Source of the DNA: Erysipelotrichaceae bacterium OH741_COT-311
GTDB taxonomy: Bacteria > Bacillota_I > Bacilli_A > Erysipelotrichales > Erysipelotrichaceae
DNA: 32,000 nt
Reading direction: 5' to 3'
NCBI GenBank assembly: GCA_003858585.1
Contig: RQZE01000003.1
Span: 120,001-152,000 of the forward strand
The first letter of the stretch is position 1; each line of letters begins with the position of its first letter. A model generated the notes under the pieces. That model ran no database searches and had not been told where the DNA came from. It was given only the letters and a program-made list of their open reading frames with translations. Both the position numbers and the translations under genes were made by a program. Below are positions 12,082 to 20,802 of this stretch, in pieces.

Positions 12082-12741
12082 TTGAAAAAAGTCATTAATA
12101 TTGTAGAGGATGAAAAAGATTTAAATGAATTAGTAAAGAGTTATTTGGAAAAAGAGGGCTATGAAGTAAATTCTTACTTATATTATGAAGATGCTTTGGC
12201 GAGTATTGAAAATCCAAATGTTCATCTATGGATTTTGGATATTATGCTAGATGATAAGAGTGGGTTTGATTTAATTGAGCGTATTCGTCAATATTCAAGT
12301 GATATACCTGTTATTTTTATGTCGGCTCGTGATAAAGAGTTTGATCGAATTATAGGGCTTGAAAAAGGAAGTGATGATTACATCACAAAGCCTTTTTCAC
12401 CTAAAGAATTGGTTCTTCGAGTTAATAATTTAATAAAACGTAGTTATAAAAGTATTGATAATAATCTTGAAGTTTATGGTTATGTGATTGATGAAGCTCA
12501 ACGTAAAGTATTGCATAATAATGAACCTGTAGATTTAACAACCAAAGAATTCGATTTATTGATGTTGTTTGTTAAAAATAAAGGAACGGCATTTTTAAGA
12601 GATAAGATTTTAGAAGAAGTGTGGGATAAAAATTATTTTGGATCCGATCGTGTTGTTGATGATACCTTAAGAAGATTAAGAAAGAAAATGCCAAACTTAG
12701 TTATACATACAATTTATGGCTTTGGCTATCGTCTAGGCTAA
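12082..12741 (+). CDS. OmpR/PhoB-family response regulator
   Basis: REC domain ('IVEDE', 'LDIMLDD', 'MSARD', 'DDYITKPF') plus a winged-helix C-terminus ('LTTKEFDLLMLF...GYRL'). TTG start lies 8 nt after GGAGG. Confidence 0.88.
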   Translation: MKKVINIVEDEKDLNELVKSYLEKEGYEVNSYLYYEDALASIENPNVHLWILDIMLDDKSGFDLIERIRQYSSDIPVIFMSARDKEFDRIIGLEKGSDDYITKPFSPKELVLRVNNLIKRSYKSIDNNLEVYGYVIDEAQRKVLHNNEPVDLTTKEFDLLMLFVKNKGTAFLRDKILEEVWDKNYFGSDRVVDDTLRRLRKKMPNLVIHTIYGFGYRLG

Positions 12742-14090
12742 TGAAACGTTTTCGTATTTGGTTAAAAGAATTATCACTAGCTCAACAATTATTTGCAATT
12801 GTCTTTTTTGTTGTGACTATTTTTACGGTTTTTTTATTTGTGTTCTTAGCAAATAATGTGGATGTATTTGTAAATAATCAAATGTATAGTGTGATACAGC
12901 GATCACAAGATAATTTGTTAAAGTATTATGTGAAACCGGAGAATGTAAGAGATATTAATAAAATTGATGATGTTGGAGTATATCACATTCTATATGAAAA
13001 AAACAGTCGTATTTTTAAGGTGAATGATACATCTATTTTAAATGATGAATTGATTGTACAAATTGAAGAAGTTATTAATAACATGAATACGACTCGATAT
13101 CAAGGTTCTTTGTATATAGATAAAGAAAAAACATTATTTATTTTTCGTGAGTTTGATATAGATAAATATTTAGTATCCGGATTAAATAATAATTTTCGTA
13201 AAGAATTTCGTTTAGCCCTTTTAAGCAGTATTATTAATTTAAATGTTTGGGTCATTATTATTTTATTTTCTAGTATCATGGTATGGTTGTTATTTTTAAT
13301 TCATCCGCTAAATTTAATACGTGCATATATTGAAAAAATTAAAGATGGACAAGAAGCAACTCTTAAAATTGATCGAAATGATGAAATTGGAGAGGTTGCT
13401 AAGGCATTGGTAATTATGCAGGATGAATTAAAAAGACAAGAAATTGTCAAAGAAGAAATGATACATAATATTTCACATGATTTAAAAACACCTATTGCAA
13501 CAATTAAATCTTATGGAGAAAGCATTAAAGACGGTATCTATCCTTATGGTAATTTAGAAACAAGCGTAGATGTTATTATTGAGCATGCCAATCGACTGGA
13601 AAAGAAAGTTTATAGTTTGTTGATGTTAAATCGCATGGAGTACTTAATGGAAAATACAGCTCAACAAACAACGGTCAACATGAAAGAGGTAACTGAAAAA
13701 GTGGTGATGGCAATCAAAATGATTAAACCTTCGATTAACATTACCATGGATCTAAAAGATGTTTATTTTTATGGGGATGAGGAACCTTGGCGTATAGTTG
13801 TTGAAAATTTATTAGATAATGCTTTACGATATTCAAAAAGTATCATTCATATTACTTTAAATGAAGAAGGATTAGCAATCTATAATGATGGAAGTACTTT
13901 AAGTCAAGACCTCCAAAAATCAATCTTCAAACCATATGAAAAAGGTGTAGGTGGACAATTTGGTTTAGGATTATCTATTGTTAGAAAAGTATGTATGAAT
14001 TACCACTATCAAGTTATTGGCGAAAATGTCAATAATGGTGTGGTGTTTAGAATCTATGAAACTAATGCTACAGGAAGAAAAAAAATTTAA
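12741..14090 (+). CDS. Sensor histidine kinase (2 TM, HAMP, HisKA, HATPase_c)
   Basis: H-box 'HNISHDLKTPIATI', N-box 'ENLLDNALRYS', 'YNDG' and 'GLGLSIV'. TAATG overlap with the response-regulator gene. Confidence 0.88.
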   Translation: MKRFRIWLKELSLAQQLFAIVFFVVTIFTVFLFVFLANNVDVFVNNQMYSVIQRSQDNLLKYYVKPENVRDINKIDDVGVYHILYEKNSRIFKVNDTSILNDELIVQIEEVINNMNTTRYQGSLYIDKEKTLFIFREFDIDKYLVSGLNNNFRKEFRLALLSSIINLNVWVIIILFSSIMVWLLFLIHPLNLIRAYIEKIKDGQEATLKIDRNDEIGEVAKALVIMQDELKRQEIVKEEMIHNISHDLKTPIATIKSYGESIKDGIYPYGNLETSVDVIIEHANRLEKKVYSLLMLNRMEYLMENTAQQTTVNMKEVTEKVVMAIKMIKPSINITMDLKDVYFYGDEEPWRIVVENLLDNALRYSKSIIHITLNEEGLAIYNDGSTLSQDLQKSIFKPYEKGVGGQFGLGLSIVRKVCMNYHYQVIGENVNNGVVFRIYETNATGRKKI

Positions 14091-14148: not shown

Positions 14149-14177
14149 TAGACAAAAACAAATAGGATTGATATATT
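14149..14177 (+). promoter_or_regulatory. Candidate promoter for the 14226-17788 signalling operon (TAGACA-17 nt-TATATT)
   Basis: Hexamers at 14149-14154 and 14172-14177 with a 17-nt spacer. Only a partial match to the consensus. Confidence 0.3.
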
Positions 14178-14225: not shown

Positions 14226-15902
14226 ATGTATATTAGTAAAAAAACCATAAAAACGAATATCATCATCCTAGGGTGTATTCTTTTTTGTGGGTGTTTACAT
14301 CTGATTGGTTATTATGTTGATCAAATTCCCTTTTCTGAAAACAATGTTATTTTTATGGTATATAGCTTTGGTATGTTACTTTGGATTATGCAAATTCAAA
14401 GAAGAATCATCCACCAAAAAGCGAAGTTATATCTATTATTAACAGCGATTTTTATGATACTTTGGATGTTGCTTAGAACGATAAAATACATCTATGTACC
14501 AAGTGATCACATCGTGCATCGTTATATTTGGTATGCTTATCATCCACTTATGATGAGTATGATTCTTTTTGATTTATTTGCAGTCTTACACACCGGAAAA
14601 CAAGAACAGCAAGCCATTGATGCAAAATGGTATGGTTTATATGTACCGACAATAGGATTCATCTTAATGTTTTTTAGCAATGATTTTCATCAATTAGCTT
14701 TTCGTTTTCATGATCCAATCGGTTGGACATCAACTAAAATGAGCTATGGGATCATCTACTATCTTGCACAAGGCTATATTTTATCTTTGTTCTTACTGAC
14801 TATGTTCATTGTCTTTCTGCGCTGTCTTGTAAAAGGAAGACGTAAATTTATATGGATTCCTATGATACCCATTAGTGTCGGTATTTTATATGCCGTAAGT
14901 TATGTTACGAAAAGTAATGTATTAAAATACTTATTAATTGCCTATAAACCGGCAGAAATGTCTTGTATTGTAATTGGTTTATTTACAGAAGCCTTAATTT
15001 TAACACGTCTATTACCATCGAATGATAACTATGAACAGTTTTGGAAATTATCTTCAATGAAAGCTGGGATTTTAGATCAGGATGGTAATCTCTATATTCA
15101 ATCACCGGGAGTATCAAATATTGATAAAAAATACATTTATAAGGCACAAATTGAAATGGTTTATTTAACCAAGGATATTGTGTTAAAGAGTAAACGTATG
15201 TTTCAAGGTTATTTGTTTTGGCAAAAAAATGTTGCGCAGTTTCATTTCTTAAATCATAAATTAAAACAATTAAAAGATAGTATTTTAGAAGAAAATGAAG
15301 TAATTGCAGCAGAAAATCAAATGAAAGAACAACACGCTCATATTAAAAATCAAAGAGAACTCTATGATTCCATTTGCAATAAAGTAAAACCTCAAGTGCA
15401 TAAGATTTCCATGTTATTAAACAGTATTCCAAAAGAGGAAGAAGCATTTTGTAATAGTATGAAACTAGCTTGTATACATAATGTATACATCAAACGATAT
15501 ACGAATTTAATGTTGTTGTATGAAAAAGATAAGTATCATTATTTTGAAGAATTGAAACTTGCTTTTATTGAATCATTAGATTACTTAACGATGGTAAACA
15601 TAGAAACGTATTTACAATGGGATGTAAACAAGCAACAGAAAACAACCTATGGCTTATGTTTGTATGAACTCTTTCAACAAATGGTTGAAGAAGCCCTTGA
15701 TACACTTACTGCTATCTTACTGCATGTAAAAGCAGAAGACGATTACATTCTTTTTGAACTTCAGATTGCCAATCCCAGGGCATATTTTTCTCAAGAAGAC
15801 TTACAAAAACGCTTAGGAGACTTTGTTACAGTAAAAACCAGTTACCAAGAAGATATTTATTACTTAACTATGGAATTACCAATGCAAGGAGGTAATGTAT
15901 GA
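14226..15902 (+). CDS. ~8-TM receptor-like protein with a degenerate histidine-kinase-like C-terminus (pseudo-HK; Tyr at the predicted phospho-acceptor position)
   Basis: Residues ~10-260 contain 7-8 hydrophobic helices. A coiled-coil follows, then 'KNQRELYDSICNK', which aligns by eye to 'EAKIKVHDDIGRS' of the next gene. 'MVEEALDTLTAI' aligns to the N-box 'LLESLTNTVRHA'. No G1/G2 boxes are present. GGGGGA RBS. 4-nt ATGA overlap with the downstream HK. Confidence 0.6.
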   Translation: MYISKKTIKTNIIILGCILFCGCLHLIGYYVDQIPFSENNVIFMVYSFGMLLWIMQIQRRIIHQKAKLYLLLTAIFMILWMLLRTIKYIYVPSDHIVHRYIWYAYHPLMMSMILFDLFAVLHTGKQEQQAIDAKWYGLYVPTIGFILMFFSNDFHQLAFRFHDPIGWTSTKMSYGIIYYLAQGYILSLFLLTMFIVFLRCLVKGRRKFIWIPMIPISVGILYAVSYVTKSNVLKYLLIAYKPAEMSCIVIGLFTEALILTRLLPSNDNYEQFWKLSSMKAGILDQDGNLYIQSPGVSNIDKKYIYKAQIEMVYLTKDIVLKSKRMFQGYLFWQKNVAQFHFLNHKLKQLKDSILEENEVIAAENQMKEQHAHIKNQRELYDSICNKVKPQVHKISMLLNSIPKEEEAFCNSMKLACIHNVYIKRYTNLMLLYEKDKYHYFEELKLAFIESLDYLTMVNIETYLQWDVNKQQKTTYGLCLYELFQQMVEEALDTLTAILLHVKAEDDYILFELQIANPRAYFSQEDLQKRLGDFVTVKTSYQEDIYYLTMELPMQGGNV

Positions 15903-17155
15903 GTAACATCTCCTTGACACATATCTTTATCCTTAGTAGTACTATGTTAGTATTAATGATTTCATCCATTTATCTAACATTATTAACCAAACGACTAGAA
16001 AAAGAACGCTGGTTATTTTATAGTTCTATTATACTTTTAGTTGTGATGATGGTACTGTCACAATCCTTTGCAGATTATGATTATTATCGCTTAGTACATA
16101 AAGAAAGATTCTTTTCTTCCTTCATCACGTTTATGTCCTTAGAAGACATTTATGTAATTCTTGTAGTATTACTACTTGCACAAGTGTATATTGCTAATAT
16201 GTATCGATTAAAGAAGAAAGTTTATATGCCGGATCAAGTAATTTATGAAGGTTTTAATCATTTTCCGGAAGGAATATGCTTTGCAGATAAGAGTGGTATG
16301 CCAATGTTAGTGAATCATCAAATGCAAAACATCATTTATAATCTATTTTGCGTACCAATGGTCAATATGAACGAGTTAAAACAACGTTTTAAACAAGGAC
16401 AAATAGTAGAAGGGTGCAGTGTCATGGATATGGGGGAATACTACATTGTACATGTTTTCGAAGAAGTCTATAGTATTCGTTATCTCACTTTAAATAATAT
16501 TACTGAAGTAACAGCGACTAAAATTACGCAAGAATATCATTTACTTCAAGAGTTAGAAATAACAAATCAAAAGTTAATCGAAACCAATCAGCGTTTAAAA
16601 GACTTTAATCAAAAAGTAGAACAATATGTAAGAGAAAAAGAAATCTTAGAAGCTAAAATTAAAGTGCATGATGATATAGGAAGATCCTTGTTGGCATTTC
16701 GCAGTTACTTAAATAAGACAACGAAAGATCGTAATGAATTACTTAAATTATGGAATCAAAGTATTCATTTAATGAAAGACGAAAGACAGGAACAAGAAAA
16801 TCTTGATAATTATCAACATGTTATAAAGATGGCAAAGCGATTGGGAGTGCATTTAGAAGTCAATGGGAAACAACCAAGTCATAAAAATGCAAGACGTATT
16901 TTAAGTCTATTACTATTAGAATCCCTTACAAATACCGTAAGACATGCGCATGGAGATTGTATTTATGCTGATATTGTGGAACAAGCAGGTTCCTATTGCA
17001 TTAAGGTATCTAATAATGGCATTCAACCAACCAAACCAATTCAAGAAAAAGGTGGCTTATTAAACCTTAGAAAAATGATTGAGCTACATCACGGAAGCAT
17101 GGAAATAAAACAAAAGCCTAATTTTACTATCCATGTTCATCTTATGAAGGAGTAA
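15899..17155 (+). CDS. Sensor histidine kinase, HisKA_3/NarL-partner type (3 TM, PAS-like region, coiled coil, DHp, HATPase_c)
   Basis: 'KVHDDIGRSL' H-box (His257, CAT 16667-16669), N-box 'ESLTNTVRHA', 'SNNG' and 'EKGGLLNL'. The PAS-like region is 'FPEGICFADKSGMPMLVNHQM'. Confidence 0.82.
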   Translation: MSNISLTHIFILSSTMLVLMISSIYLTLLTKRLEKERWLFYSSIILLVVMMVLSQSFADYDYYRLVHKERFFSSFITFMSLEDIYVILVVLLLAQVYIANMYRLKKKVYMPDQVIYEGFNHFPEGICFADKSGMPMLVNHQMQNIIYNLFCVPMVNMNELKQRFKQGQIVEGCSVMDMGEYYIVHVFEEVYSIRYLTLNNITEVTATKITQEYHLLQELEITNQKLIETNQRLKDFNQKVEQYVREKEILEAKIKVHDDIGRSLLAFRSYLNKTTKDRNELLKLWNQSIHLMKDERQEQENLDNYQHVIKMAKRLGVHLEVNGKQPSHKNARRILSLLLLESLTNTVRHAHGDCIYADIVEQAGSYCIKVSNNGIQPTKPIQEKGGLLNLRKMIELHHGSMEIKQKPNFTIHVHLMKE

Positions 17156-17158
17156 ACA

Positions 17159-17788
17159 ATGAAAAAAACAAGAGTCATGATTGTTGATGATCAATATGTA
17201 CCTAGAGAACTGTTTCGTATGTATGTGGAATACAGTGAACGTTATGAATTAGCGGTAGTTATCAGTTCAGCGGCATTTGCTTTAGCTTATTTATTGGATG
17301 AAAATGTGGATTTAATTATTATGGATATTTTAATGAACGATGGATCAAATGGATTGGATGTTGCTTATCGCATTAAACAAACCTATCCTAAAATCAAGAT
17401 TATTGCCGTAACCAGTATGTTTGAAGAAAGTTGGGTTAAAAAGGCTAAAAAAATAGGGATTGACAGCTTTTGGTACAAAGAAGCCGAAAAGGAAACAATT
17501 TTATCAATTATGGATCAAACGATGGAGGGGAAGCACGTTTATCCTACTTATAAACCGAAAATTAAATTAGGGTATATTGATTCGGGTAAACTTACGGAGC
17601 GTGAAATGGAAGTTTTAAGAGCTATGACTGCAGGGGCAACCAATACACAAATCGCTTTAAAACTGAACATGAAAGAAAACACGGTAAAAACCCATATTAA
17701 GCACATGATGGAAAAAACAGGGTGTGAAAACCGTACACAACTTGCCATACGTGCCAGGGTGGCAGGCATTGTTGTTGATAAAGAATAA
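17159..17788 (+). CDS. LuxR/NarL-family response regulator
   Basis: REC domain ('IVDDQ', 'DLIIMDILM', 'AVTS') plus a LuxR HTH ('LTEREMEVLRAMTAGATNTQIALKLNMKENTVKTHIKHMMEK'). AAGGAG RBS. Confidence 0.9.
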   Translation: MKKTRVMIVDDQYVPRELFRMYVEYSERYELAVVISSAAFALAYLLDENVDLIIMDILMNDGSNGLDVAYRIKQTYPKIKIIAVTSMFEESWVKKAKKIGIDSFWYKEAEKETILSIMDQTMEGKHVYPTYKPKIKLGYIDSGKLTEREMEVLRAMTAGATNTQIALKLNMKENTVKTHIKHMMEKTGCENRTQLAIRARVAGIVVDKE

Positions 17789-17816
17789 ATTCACAGGAAA
17801 ACCTGTGAATTTTTTC
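17788..17816 (+). terminator. Rho-independent terminator after the response-regulator gene
   Basis: 'aattcacagg-aaaa-cctgtgaatt' perfect 10-bp stem followed by a T-run. Confidence 0.85.
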
Positions 17817-17934: not shown

Positions 17935-20802
17935 ATGAATAGGATAAAAAGCAACAAAGCAATCAAAATACTCTTAATCTTCATGATGTTTATTGCACTG
18001 TTACCAACCAACATCATTAAGCTACATGCACAGGAAGAATACAACCTTACTATTATTGGTTTGGATAAAACGGAAACTGTCAAAGTGAAGGAAGGCACAA
18101 GAAGGGAAGCAACGGTTGTTGTGTACGAAGATGATCAAGCGTTTAGTCACTGGGAAGTAGTCAGTGGCGGCCCTATTGTATTTGAAAAAGGTACAACAGA
18201 ACCTTGGAATTTTTTTGTCATGCCATCCAATGATGTCGTGATTAAAGCGGTCTATGTACAAGGATATTCTATAAAAATGGAAGGCGGATGCGGACATATT
18301 CGCCCCTATAATATATCATTCTATTTGGCTATACGTGAAATAATGGCAAATGCCAATCGTAAGGTAGTAATATGGTACAAAACCGATTCAGAAGGCAAAG
18401 AATTCAGTCATTGGGAAGTCATTCGTGGCGGAATTACCTTAGAGAATACCCATGTCGAGCGTACGTCATTTATTATGCCGGAAAATGATGTTGTGATTAA
18501 ATGCGTTGAAAAAGGTGGTGAAACCTATAGTATTACGATAGAGGATGGATATGCCGTAAATCATACTACGGGTGTTACTGCTAGTGAAGCGTTACCGGGG
18601 CATGAGATAAAGATTTATTCTCGTACATATCAGGAAGGAATGGTTTTTGATCACTGGGAAGTCATTGATGGCGGGATTACTTTGGGTGATGTAAACGATT
18701 CAATAACGTCATTTATCATGCCGGGAAATGATGTCATCTTAAAAGCTCATCATGTTAAGGGACATAAAATTCAAATAGAAAATGGATATAAATACAACAC
18801 AACTATTAAAACGTGGTTTGAAAAATCCGGTAACAAGGTATATATAGAGGTAGGTTCACTACCTTTAGGAAAAGTTTTTAGTCATTGGGAAGTCGTCAGT
18901 GGAAGTGTTACTTTGGATGATGCAAACGATTCAATGACGTCATTTATCATGCCGGATGGGGATGTAAATATTAAGGCAGTTCTTATTGATGAAAAGCATA
19001 GCATTTTGGTAGATGGTGGATATGCTTATTACGAAGGTAGTTTAGTTACAGAAGCCGCTTCGGATCAAATTATAGATATAATAGCGGCATCGCCTTCAAG
19101 TGGGAAACTGTTCAGTCACTGGGAAGTGGTTAGCGGAAACATTAAGATTGCACAACCGGGCAGAAGAAAAACACACTTTACAATGGCAAAGGAAGATGTA
19201 AGTGTAAAGGCGATATTTAAAGATTCTTACAATATTGATGTTGAAGGTGGAACATCAAGTGTAGATTCTGTAGATACCACTTCTACAATTGCCGGAAAAC
19301 AGGTGTACATTACCGTTAATAATATTCCAAAAGGGCAGGCGTTCAGTCATTGGGAAGTCGTCGGTGGAAGTATAACATTAGATAATCCATATAGCACTAC
19401 TACATTTTTCACTATGCCGGAAGAAGATGTAAGTGTCAAAGCGGTGTTTGAAAAGGGAATTGATGTTGAAGTAATCGGTGGCTTTGCACAATTGGATGGC
19501 TATGAAATCACACAGGCATTAAAAAATCAAACAATATCTATTCGTGCCGATGCACCGCCTTTAGATAAAGAATTTGCTTATTGGGTGGTTCATGATGGTG
19601 GCATTGTTGTAAACGATTCTACCAAACCTGTGACATCTTTTGATATGGGGGATAAAAAAGTACGCATTGAAGCGGTTTATACGGATACCTACAAGGTTAA
19701 TGTATTACCCGGAACAAATGGTAGTGTTGTTGCCGATAAGGTAAATAATGTGTTACCCGGCGAAACGATTGGTTTAGTAGTAACTGCGGATAGCGGGTAT
19801 GTTTTAGATGAATTAGTTGTCAAAGATAGTAGTAATCGTATCGTTCCGTTAGTGCATACATATTTTGTGATGCCTGCTTCTGATGTTGAAGTAAAGGCAA
19901 CCTTTAAACCTAAAGATCCGATTACCTTTGATTTATCGACAAAAGTAATTGATGGTCATGGCAGTATTTCAAAAGGGAAAAAAGATCTTCCGTTAAATAG
20001 CATCGAAACGATTACTTTTATGCCTGTTGCAAATTATGAAATTGATTATGTAACGGTAAATGGCATCGTGGTTGTTGTCTCGGGTAATGTCTATAATCTT
20101 ACAATGGATTCAGATAAACATGTAGAGGTAAAGTATAAAAAGATTGGTAGTGCCTCTACTCCTCAACCTACAACCGTTAATCTTACAACAAAGGTGTTAA
20201 GTGGTAAGGGTGATGTTTCGAAAGGTATGGAAAATGTTCCGTTAAATTCCACTGAAACGATTACCTTTACACCGGAGGTTGGATTTGAAATAGAAAAGGT
20301 AACCGTTAACGGAGTTGAGGTTACTGTTGTAGGAAATAGCTATCATCTTACAATGGATTCTGATAAACATGTGGAAGTTAGTTATAAAGATGTTCGTCCG
20401 ATACACTATATTTCTTATAATTTAAATGGTGGAACTTTACAAGGAAAAACAGGGCAAGTGGCGATTTTAGTTAGAGAAGGAGAGACAATTAAGCTTCCGG
20501 CTGCTCCATATAAACCGGGTTATCGTTTTAGTTATTGGAAAGGATCTAAATATTATCCTGGTGATAATTATGTAGTACGAAGTGGTCATACTTTTACAGC
20601 ACAATGGGAAAAATTATCTTTAGAACCTATCAATAATTCAACGATGATTGTAAATCCAAGTAACGAAGTTACACATGTAAAGGTTAAAATACCTAAGACA
20701 AAGGATACAACACAATCATCGCTATGGCTTATGATGATGGTGATGTCTCTTGTCGGTTTGTTTGGTTTTTATTCCTTAAACAAGAAACGAGAGCATAGAT
20801 AA
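17935..20802 (+). CDS. Large secreted/cell-surface repeat protein (InlB B-repeat / Listeria-Bacteroides-repeat-like modules) with a C-terminal sorting-like anchor
   Basis: Signal peptide 'MNRIKSNKAIKILLIFMMFIALLPTNIIKLHA/QEE'. About 10 tandem 77-87-aa modules, 7 of them with '(F/Y)(S/D/A)(H/Y)W(E/V)V..G...(x)..T.F.MP..DV..KA'. One 'GY.FSYW...TAQWE' Listeria-Bacteroides-type repeat. The C-terminus has 'IPKTKD', a hydrophobic helix and 'NKKREHR'. AAAGGAGG RBS. Confidence 0.85.
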   Translation: MNRIKSNKAIKILLIFMMFIALLPTNIIKLHAQEEYNLTIIGLDKTETVKVKEGTRREATVVVYEDDQAFSHWEVVSGGPIVFEKGTTEPWNFFVMPSNDVVIKAVYVQGYSIKMEGGCGHIRPYNISFYLAIREIMANANRKVVIWYKTDSEGKEFSHWEVIRGGITLENTHVERTSFIMPENDVVIKCVEKGGETYSITIEDGYAVNHTTGVTASEALPGHEIKIYSRTYQEGMVFDHWEVIDGGITLGDVNDSITSFIMPGNDVILKAHHVKGHKIQIENGYKYNTTIKTWFEKSGNKVYIEVGSLPLGKVFSHWEVVSGSVTLDDANDSMTSFIMPDGDVNIKAVLIDEKHSILVDGGYAYYEGSLVTEAASDQIIDIIAASPSSGKLFSHWEVVSGNIKIAQPGRRKTHFTMAKEDVSVKAIFKDSYNIDVEGGTSSVDSVDTTSTIAGKQVYITVNNIPKGQAFSHWEVVGGSITLDNPYSTTTFFTMPEEDVSVKAVFEKGIDVEVIGGFAQLDGYEITQALKNQTISIRADAPPLDKEFAYWVVHDGGIVVNDSTKPVTSFDMGDKKVRIEAVYTDTYKVNVLPGTNGSVVADKVNNVLPGETIGLVVTADSGYVLDELVVKDSSNRIVPLVHTYFVMPASDVEVKATFKPKDPITFDLSTKVIDGHGSISKGKKDLPLNSIETITFMPVANYEIDYVTVNGIVVVVSGNVYNLTMDSDKHVEVKYKKIGSASTPQPTTVNLTTKVLSGKGDVSKGMENVPLNSTETITFTPEVGFEIEKVTVNGVEVTVVGNSYHLTMDSDKHVEVSYKDVRPIHYISYNLNGGTLQGKTGQVAILVREGETIKLPAAPYKPGYRFSYWKGSKYYPGDNYVVRSGHTFTAQWEKLSLEPINNSTMIVNPSNEVTHVKVKIPKTKDTTQSSLWLMMMVMSLVGLFGFYSLNKKREHR
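18037..20391 (+). repeat. In-frame tandem array of ~10 divergent 231-261-nt coding modules inside the surface-protein gene
   Basis: The HWEV/YWVV motif recurs at residues 72, 159, 240, 317, 395, 472 and 549. Three further modules lack that motif. The last two (res 666-737 and 748-818) are clearly paralogous: '...PLNS.ETITF.P...EI..VTVNG..V.V.GN.Y.LTMDSDKHVEV.YK'. Confidence 0.8.

Follow-up and report, generated by a model that had tools for sequence, protein, structure and literature searches.

A family of histidine kinase-shaped membrane proteins without acceptor histidine or ATP site, encoded upstream of an intact DesK-class kinase

What does a membrane protein that is shaped like a histidine kinase, and lacks its catalytic motifs, do directly upstream of an intact kinase? 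This question arises from a three-gene unit in the genome of Erysipelotrichaceae bacterium OH741_COT-311. The unit lies on the forward strand of a 32,000-nucleotide stretch of DNA (assembly GCA_003858585.1, contig RQZE01000003.1, positions 120,001 to 152,000; G+C content, 32%), which is called the window here and supplies all coordinates unless another locus is named. Its first open reading frame (ORF) (14226..15902) encodes a protein of 558 aa, the second (15899..17155) a sensor histidine kinase of 418 aa, and the third (17159..17788) a NarL/LuxR-type response regulator. The 90%-identity cluster of the 558-aa protein includes RRC93709.1, a "hypothetical protein" from the same organism. The original prediction, made by reading the sequence, described the 558-aa protein as an eight-helix receptor fused to a kinase-like module with tyrosine in place of the phospho-acceptor histidine, like DivL of Caulobacter. 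Rereading of the sequence confirmed the ORF, the codon coordinates, the ATGA overlap of the first two ORFs, and every quoted motif (RELYDSI at residues 377-383, EEALD at 488-492, and IANP at 514-517 of the 558-aa protein; KVHDDIG at 255-261, ESLTN at 341-345, and SNNG at 371-374 of the kinase). The analysis described below identifies the protein as a pseudo-kinase, because a histidine kinase fold is combined with the absence of any conserved histidine and with a degenerate nucleotide pocket. It is probably the signal-sensing, noncatalytic subunit of a three-component system and would control the adjacent kinase by direct contact.

Kinase-like fold and loss of the catalytic motifs

Searches of Pfam and NCBIfam with the pseudo-kinase revealed no kinase domain and no match of any kind in its cytoplasmic part. 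BLASTP against the neighbouring kinase gave a best E value of 3.2, in a region other than that aligned in the original prediction, and the family profile gave no match at E ≤ 10 among all PDB sequences, DivL (4q20) included. The end-to-end hhalign alignment with the partner kinase family fell short of significance (probability, 3.8%; P = 0.0035). In the AlphaFold model of the protein, for which 14 homologues were used (pLDDT, 80.6), eight transmembrane (TM) helices are followed by a small PAS-like domain and then by a hairpin and an alpha/beta domain that resemble DHp and CA, respectively. A Foldseek search of the PDB with this model as the query yielded 67 matches at E ≤ 1e-3. Among the matches listed, the best 50 of the 67, all are histidine kinases or kinase-fold proteins except three plant phytochrome A entries; the matches include YF1, ThkA, VicK, SrrB, ChpT, DesK, AgrC, DivL (4q20), RetS (7n0e), and BceS. 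Although the sequence methods were negative, the protein is therefore predicted to have a histidine kinase fold, in which a DHp hairpin is followed by an alpha/beta CA domain. The kinase-like module of the original prediction thus stands as a fold, whereas the by-eye alignment that had led to it does not exceed what chance would give in sequence statistics.

The cytoplasmic half begins with the beta-rich PAS-like domain (residues 269 to 335; 15030..15230), which has model strands at residues 279-284, 289-292, 318-325, and 328-335 and has W-x-x-D-I-S/T at its end, where it joins the signalling helix. Conservation was counted in an alignment of 155 family members, and column counts for genome loci were taken from 74 loci. 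In the PAS-like domain, G328 is conserved in 154/155 members, W332 in 147/155, and the aspartate at position 335, which is asparagine in the window protein, in 139/155. The domain is followed by a continuous model helix of 63 residues (residues 337 to 399; 15234..15422) that comprises the signalling helix and DHp-like helix 1. The helix that connects the PAS end with the hairpin in the partner kinase has the same length (residues 210 to 272; 16526-16714). Position 335 is separated from Y380 by 45 residues in 74 of 74 loci; the equivalent spacing in the partner kinase is 47 residues in 73 of 74. DHp-like helix 2 (residues 405 to 435; 15438..15530), assigned from the model and from motif conservation, has 31 residues compared with 21 in the partner. 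It carries the strongest cytoplasmic motif of the family alignment, Y421-I-K423-R424-x-S-N427-L (15486-15509). The CA-like alpha/beta domain (residues 437 to 552; 15534..15881) lacks nucleotide-binding motifs and matches the partner's CA domain in the order of its elements, so that the succession of PAS domain, hairpin, and alpha/beta domain is common to both models. A reading of K-R-x-S-N-L in helix 405-435 as a degenerate AgrC-type H-box was rejected, because the assignment of residues 337-399 to helix 1 and of residues 405-435 to helix 2 reproduces the element order of the partner one to one.

Analysis of the family alignment revealed that histidine occurs in at most 15 of the 155 members in every column of residues 330 to 558. 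The histidines at positions 370, 372, and 392 of the window protein, which had been named as possible substitute acceptors, are shared by 4, 11, and 2 members, and the caveat attached to them was not borne out. The three positions that come into question as equivalents of the acceptor, 380, 384, and 367, carry histidine in 1, 2, and 1 members, respectively. No conserved asparagine was found in residues 473 to 490, the equivalent of the N-box helix. Partner N345 corresponds to Gln485 by hhalign and by its position at the helix end, not to Asp492 as first proposed; a conserved asparagine is absent at either position, and position 485 is E, A, D, R, or T across the family. The strand that ends in N372-N-G374 in the partner ends in I-A-N-P (residues 514 to 517) in the pseudo-kinase, with no DxGxG, and position 515 is acidic in 90/155 members. 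No glycine pair of a G2 box precedes helix 523-530 of the pseudo-kinase, and the segment from the strand to this helix has 7 residues compared with 13 in the partner, a lid about 6 residues shorter. The predicted correspondence of SNNG to IANP and the missing G2 box therefore agree with both the family alignment and the structure models. A conserved acceptor histidine accompanied by an intact ATP lid was not found among the 155 members. These results indicate that the family is CATALYTICALLY dead, without acceptor histidine and with a dead ATP site throughout, and they extend the pseudo-kinase assignment from the window protein to the whole family.

The most probable equivalent of H257, to within a possible error of one helical turn, is Tyr380 (codon TAT, 15363-15365), as judged from family conservation and from the best register against the partner. 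This position is tyrosine in 147/155 representatives, with aspartate or glutamate as the next residue in 119/155, and the consensus n-R-L-Y-D-x-I-A resembles i-x-V-H-D-D-V-G of the partner family. Global hhalign pairs Y380 with H257, at the cost of two compensating 4-residue gaps within one helix, and an ungapped profile scan places this register first (z = 3.7 in the core window of the scan and 2.9 in a wide window of 25 residues). Ungapped counting from the D-(I/V)-(S/T) motif at the PAS end gives 49 residues to H257 in the partner and 49 to residue 384 in the pseudo-kinase, which is Ala, Ser, or Thr in the family and lies one turn below Tyr380; a local hhalign run with the DHp region favours Lys367. 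The pairing of Tyr380 with His257 in the original prediction is thus retained by the best global and ungapped registers, whereas the count along the helix selects residue 384 and the local alignment residue 367. Sequence by itself cannot fix the equivalence, because the hhalign alignment is not significant and the DHp run picks another register. In the genome loci, the Tyr380 column contains Y in 58, R in 10, F in 5, and Q in 1 of the 74. Tyrosine is therefore the dominant residue at this position and not universal (R, F, or Q in 16/74 loci). Since these replacements occur, the hydroxyl group is not essential, and phosphorylation of the tyrosine is unlikely as a mechanism.

Conservation of the cytoplasmic half is concentrated elsewhere. 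In DHp-like helix 2, K423 and R424 are found in 155/155 members, N427 in 151/155, and Y421 in 146/155; in the helix after the DHp hairpin, E449 is found in 155/155, and E442 is also among the most strongly conserved cytoplasmic residues. R424 would lie level with Y380 in the modelled hairpin, both being 22 positions away from the centre of the loop. Conservation of K423, R424, E449, N427, and Y380 probably reflects purifying selection on a noncatalytic surface.

The membrane domain (residues 1 to 259; 14226..15002) is of the HisKA_7TM type, as assigned from the model helices, the PF16927 matches of homologues, and loop charge. The TM helices of the AlphaFold model comprise residues 5-30, 38-59, 64-89, 96-121, 133-150, 176-202, 210-228, and 242-259. 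The lysine and arginine content of successive loops is, family-wide, 1.6, 0.4, 2.1, 0.2, and 2.6, followed by an acidic loop and then 2.6; this alternation, read by the positive-inside rule, indicates that both termini are inside. The eight helices read from the sequence at first are thus recovered by the model and by loop charge. PF16927 was matched by 11 of the 14 homologues (best E value, 5e-10), and precomputed database annotations mark HisKA_7TM in 5 of 15, whereas a PF16927 search with the window pseudo-kinase gave no match at E ≤ 1. Membership in HisKA_7TM therefore appears to hold for the family, not for the individual window sequence.

The outer end of TM5 carries the near-invariant motif T-N-D-x-H-x-x-x-F-x-F (residues 151 to 161; 14676..14708), in which N152 is conserved in 155/155, H155 in 154/155, F159 in 153/155, and D153 in 141/155 members; T151 and F161 are likewise near-invariant. 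At the outer end of TM4, W102 (150/155) and Y103 (154/155) are accompanied by the near-invariant residues R99, Y105, and Y106. H155 is the sole conserved histidine of the family. Together, these residues of TM4 and TM5 are predicted to form a putative extracytoplasmic sensing pocket, placed outside by the topology. Since the outer pocket, the end of the PAS-like domain, and the fixed helix spacing are all conserved, the path from the pocket to the dead DHp hairpin is under selection. Conservation of the whole path would be expected if the protein is a sensor; a decaying gene would not be expected to show it.

The partner kinase and the conserved gene triad

The partner kinase has three TM helices with the N terminus outside, small outside loops, a cytoplasmic PAS domain, a DHp domain, and an intact CA domain. 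Its phospho-acceptor, His257, is encoded by CAT at 16667-16669. The invariant residues of the partner family are H257, D258, G261, E341, N345, N372, G374, G385, and G386. Comparison of the partner family profile with the PDB revealed DosT (5.4e-10), DesK (4.2e-9), VraS (1e-7), and DevS, and the Pfam HATPase_c score of 25.4 bits is slightly below the cut-off of 26.4. The AlphaFold model (pLDDT, 83) comprises the PAS domain at residues 112-208, helices at residues 210-272 and 278-298, and then alpha-beta-alpha-beta-beta-alpha-beta-beta. The partner is a complete HisKA_3 (DesK-class) kinase, because the H-box, N-box, G1, and G2 are invariant and DosT, DesK, DevS, and VraS are matched. The response regulator consists of a REC domain and a GerE helix-turn-helix domain (Pfam Response_reg, 2e-17; GerE, 2e-18; NCBIfam, NarL-like).

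An exhaustive search with the family profile, in which the representatives are 50%-identity clusters, revealed 3,035 representatives of the pseudo-kinase family at E ≤ 1e-3 and 1,635 below 1e-30. The top 150 members are mostly about 520 to 580 aa long and cover most of the profile length. Synteny was analyzed in 80 loci of species-representative genomes, 5 metagenomic loci, and the window. A kinase of the partner family lies immediately downstream in 78 of the 79 loci with enough sequence, the exception being a split ORF, and a LuxR-type regulator is next after the kinase in 69/72. A 4-nt overlap of pseudo-kinase and kinase was found in 31 of the 56 pairs in which the longest ORF gave a usable start. 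In the reverse direction, three distant partner kinases each have a family member of 561 to 563 aa directly upstream (hmmsearch E values, 1e-185 to 1e-208).

Hosts of the family belong to Tissierellia (Peptoniphilus, Anaerococcus, and Murdochiella), Clostridia (Oscillospiraceae, Lachnospiraceae, Acutalibacteraceae, and Christensenellales), and Erysipelotrichia (Allobaculum and Solobacterium); one Coriobacteriia genome was also found. A split was seen in the complete genome of Allobaculum mucilyticum (NZ_CP078089.1; locus L021, 6677-7995), in which the partner kinase is divided into ORFs of 280 and 177 aa, the pseudo-kinase and the regulator are intact, and the division represents a pseudogene or a sequencing error. 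Similar splits in loci L005 and L020 affect the pseudo-kinase gene. Some genomes contain two copies of the module. In L044 (257-2623 and 4950-6656), a standard module is immediately preceded by another, in which the family member is 788 aa long and has a kinase and a regulator of its own; L066 and L067 come from the same metagenome-assembled genome. Such genomes suggest paralogous diversification for different signals.

In the window, the stop and start codons of the pseudo-kinase and kinase ORFs share ATGA (15899-15902), and an AAGGAGG Shine-Dalgarno sequence (15886-15892), positioned 7 nt upstream of the kinase start codon, is contained in the 3' end of the pseudo-kinase gene; both were read from the sequence. 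The translational coupling to the adjacent kinase that was originally proposed is therefore apparent in the window from the overlap and the internal Shine-Dalgarno sequence and is accompanied by conserved linkage of the two genes. The regulator ORF begins 3 nt after the kinase ORF. Consensus scans placed a promoter-like site and a terminator-like hairpin on the two flanks of the three-gene unit, both on the forward strand. The former, a consensus match (TAGACA-17-TATATT with a TG extension; 14149..14177; 10/12 matches), sits in the 135-nt gap upstream of the unit. The latter (17787..17812), with an 11-bp stem followed by a T-run, comes right after the regulator gene. An Rfam scan of the whole window (1-32000) found no family that reached its gathering score.

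Directly upstream of the 135-nt gap, a classical two-component pair occupies positions 12082-14090 of the forward strand. It consists of an OmpR-type regulator (12082-12741; Response_reg and Trans_reg_C) and a HAMP-HisKA-HATPase_c kinase (12741-14090), and the two ORFs have one base in common, 12741, which is the end of the regulator and the start of the kinase. Directly downstream of the terminator-like hairpin, a 955-aa protein is encoded on the same strand (17935-20802). It contains four or more divergent InlB B-repeat domains (Flg_new_2; E value, 2e-55) and one Listeria-Bacteroides repeat, and it carries a hydrophobic anchor segment at the C terminus. This protein may be one of the regulator's targets, but the genes next to the module are not kept in other lineages. 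They vary from the InlB-repeat surface protein in the window to Big_2/fn3 proteins, helicases, and solute-binding proteins elsewhere. In several Clostridia loci, a match to DUF6935 occurs downstream of the regulator, as in L088 (6053-6553) and L090 (6080-6580), each encoding 166 aa; in L001 (9806-11323) the match lies within a 505-aa Big_2 protein, and in L086 an unannotated ORF of 166 aa is found about 700 nt downstream of the regulator. A gene of the DUF6935 type may be a recurrent member of the regulon.

Comparison with known systems

DivL is a functional analogue of the pseudo-kinase and not a relative. As a statement of family membership, the label "DivL-like" of the original prediction had to be abandoned, since no sequence relationship was found and the partner kinase is of the DesK/HisKA_3 class, not HisKA. 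DivL is alphaproteobacterial and is not known to be operon-coupled to CckA. The family described here differs from it by an architecture of a polytopic membrane domain and one small PAS-like domain and by the replacement of the tyrosine by Arg or Phe in some clades. In Caulobacter crescentus, DivL has a kinase fold with Tyr550 at the acceptor position and regulates CckA without kinase or phosphatase activity (PMC4211667). It senses DivK~P, with PAS domains aiding recognition, and binds ATP analogues weakly (PMC4211667).

The original prediction had also regarded such an arrangement as undescribed in Bacillota. This claim was overstated, because RocA-CovS and FasB-FasC, which are closer precedents, are already described in Streptococcus. 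The partner system of RocA is OmpR-type, not NarL-type. RocA shares with the pseudo-kinase the combination of a polytopic membrane N terminus, a DHp region, and a degenerate CA domain; action through a real kinase is suggested by synteny in the present case. RocA is set apart by its description, being about 100 residues shorter and having no PAS-like domain described. In Streptococcus pyogenes, RocA is a noncatalytic pseudokinase with six TM helices, a DHp-like region, and a CA domain without key residues, and it binds and modulates CovS (PMC7028121). It keeps a dispensable DHp histidine, H246, and is encoded away from covRS (PMC7028121). The fasBCA operon resembles the present module in that two genes for membrane kinase-like proteins are joined with one regulator gene. 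It differs in that, in the module, histidine and ATP site are both lost in one protein and both kept in the other, and in that the kinase is of the DesK/HisKA_3 class with a LuxR-type regulator. The S. pyogenes operon encodes the regulator FasA and two kinase-like proteins with six TM helices, FasB and FasC, which form hetero- and not homo-complexes and of which one is a proposed pseudokinase (PMC12675982). DHp and HATPase domains are present in both, with a division of labour in which FasC provides the sensor and the histidine and FasB the kinase domain (PMC12675982).

The LiaF-LiaS-LiaR and VraT-VraS-VraR systems of Firmicutes are similar in gene order, with a membrane accessory gene directly upstream of a few-TM HisKA_3 kinase and a NarL-type regulator. 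LiaF and VraT are not known to be kinase-fold proteins; the pseudo-kinase differs in having no Pfam match to such families and a full cytoplasmic part of PAS-DHp-CA shape. RetS is a proteobacterial hybrid kinase that retains the kinase motifs and has its sensor domain in the periplasm, and it is not known to be linked to gacS. The likeness to RetS-GacS of Pseudomonas aeruginosa lies in the control of a second kinase by a kinase-fold protein through direct contact at the DHp level (cited in PMC12675982). The same work also names LiaF among accessory proteins (PMC12675982). HisKA_7TM (PF16927) is otherwise the N-terminal region of histidine kinases; here it is paired with a dead output, and catalysis is placed in a separate gene.

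Full-text literature searches found no paper on the pseudo-kinase family, and databases label it "hypothetical protein." The general idea of an accessory pseudokinase is not new. What is new is this family with its obligate, translationally coupled operon arrangement, together with the HisKA_7TM sensor, the DesK/NarL class, the loss of histidine and ATP motifs in full from one protein with their full retention in the other, and the size and breadth of the family.

Models of action and significance

According to the reading that we favour, a signal would be detected by the eight-helix HisKA_7TM-type domain through the conserved outer-face pocket. The conformational change would pass through the PAS-like domain and the rigid 63-residue signalling helix into the DHp/CA module, which, as judged from its motifs, would be unable to bind ATP or to become phosphorylated. 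This inactive module would contact the cotranslated DesK-class kinase through a bundle of DHp and signalling helices, by TM association, or by both, and the contact would set the balance of kinase and phosphatase activity of the partner toward the NarL/LuxR-type regulator. Contact in a hetero-bundle is favoured because the helix lengths are equal and FasB/FasC provides a precedent; equal helices of 63 residues are compatible with an in-register bundle. Accessory proteins such as RocA and LiaF have been proposed to act by lateral TM association. We infer that the two proteins are in physical contact, as well as the surface through which they meet and the direction in which information flows.

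Several points weigh against this reading. The kinase homology rests on a predicted structure, and significance was reached by no sequence method. The equal helix lengths may be a coincidence. The partner kinase has a PAS domain of its own and could sense by itself. A conserved adjacent regulon was sought across lineages and not found, so that the gene neighbourhood gives no hint at the signal. An apparent end-to-end fusion of pseudo-kinase and kinase in a metagenomic sequence (P0224, 961 aa) was rejected as evidence of interaction. This fusion is implausible because the kinase has three TM helices and an outside N terminus; joined to a cytoplasmic C terminus, its kinase domain would be misplaced. 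An error of 1 nt (frameshift) at the ATGA overlap is likelier.

A stricter form of the favoured reading, modelled on FasB-FasC, is an obligate asymmetric heterodimer in which the pseudo-kinase replaces one protomer at a ratio of 1:1 and the single CA domain of the partner would phosphorylate its own His257. The identical helices from the PAS end to the hairpin, the invariant helix spacing in both proteins, a translational coupling that favours 1:1 synthesis, and the two-hybrid behaviour of FasB and FasC, which form heterodimers and not homodimers, all fit this arrangement. It is nevertheless unlikely in view of the different lengths of DHp helix 2 (31 versus 21 residues) and the weak profile similarity between the two DHp regions. 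The pseudo-kinase could also be a feedback sensor of the DivL type, whose dead DHp domain docks onto the LuxR-type regulator in its phosphorylated form, or onto another receiver, and reports its state to the partner kinase. The probable histidine position, mostly occupied by tyrosine and followed by a conserved aspartate as at Y550 of DivL, the conserved polar patch of Y380/D381 and K423/R424/N427 at one level of the hairpin, and the presence of DivL (4q20) among the Foldseek matches are consistent with such a function. However, the best-conserved residues beyond the DHp region lie on the extracytoplasmic face of the eight-TM domain, which points to sensing from outside; Arg or Phe takes the place of the tyrosine in 15/74 loci, and a sequence relationship to DivL is lacking, so that we regard feedback sensing as quite unlikely.

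Tight operon coupling and a degenerate catalytic core would equally be found in a structural accessory that senses nothing and serves only membrane insertion, stability, or localization of the partner kinase. Such a role is improbable, since the outer pocket, the PAS-like domain, the D-I-S/T junction, and the indel-free signalling helix are conserved beyond what a passive scaffold would lead one to expect. A cryptic catalytic role, in which the module phosphorylates itself or is phosphorylated by the CA domain of the partner, at Tyr380 or elsewhere, and participates in phosphotransfer, would agree with 95% conservation of the tyrosine in the representative set, with the acidic residue next to it, and with the acidic residue at position 515 in 90/155. 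We consider it most improbable: the module has no N-box asparagine, no glycine-rich boxes, a shortened lid, and no conserved cytoplasmic histidine; the tyrosine is replaced by Arg, Phe, or Gln in 16/74 genome loci; and the tyrosine of DivL is not a functional acceptor.

The favoured reading, a noncatalytic sensor that acts on the adjacent kinase, can tentatively be taken further, although we doubt that all of its parts will hold together. Across thousands of Bacillota lineages from gut and mouth, receptor and catalytic kinase might be obligately separate, with the eight-TM pseudo-kinase and a minimal DesK-like kinase in an in-register hetero-bundle and with the Tyr/Asp-Lys/Arg-Asn patch as a new regulatory site. 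If this were true, the patch, at the level of the former acceptor, could dock the CA domain of the partner or the phosphorylated regulator, and the module would represent a general, previously unrecognized way to build sensor kinases from one dead and one live protomer.

To our knowledge, pseudo-histidine-kinases are known from a few cases, DivL, RocA, RetS, and FasC, each found through genetics in one organism. The present family numbers 1,635 or more 50%-identity clusters and has one fixed operon architecture that includes a live kinase, and its cytoplasmic half is covered by no Pfam model. Its members occur in Clostridia, Tissierellia, and Erysipelotrichia associated with humans and animals and constitute a large natural data set on the control of a live kinase by a dead protomer. 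Censuses of two-component systems count kinases by models of the histidine box and the ATPase domain and therefore miss these proteins, a class that the family now supplies. The family further defines a conserved outer-face pocket as a putative ligand site. The near-constant operon linkage with a working kinase and a regulator suggests a signalling switch of three parts that is widespread among Firmicutes of the gut and mouth.

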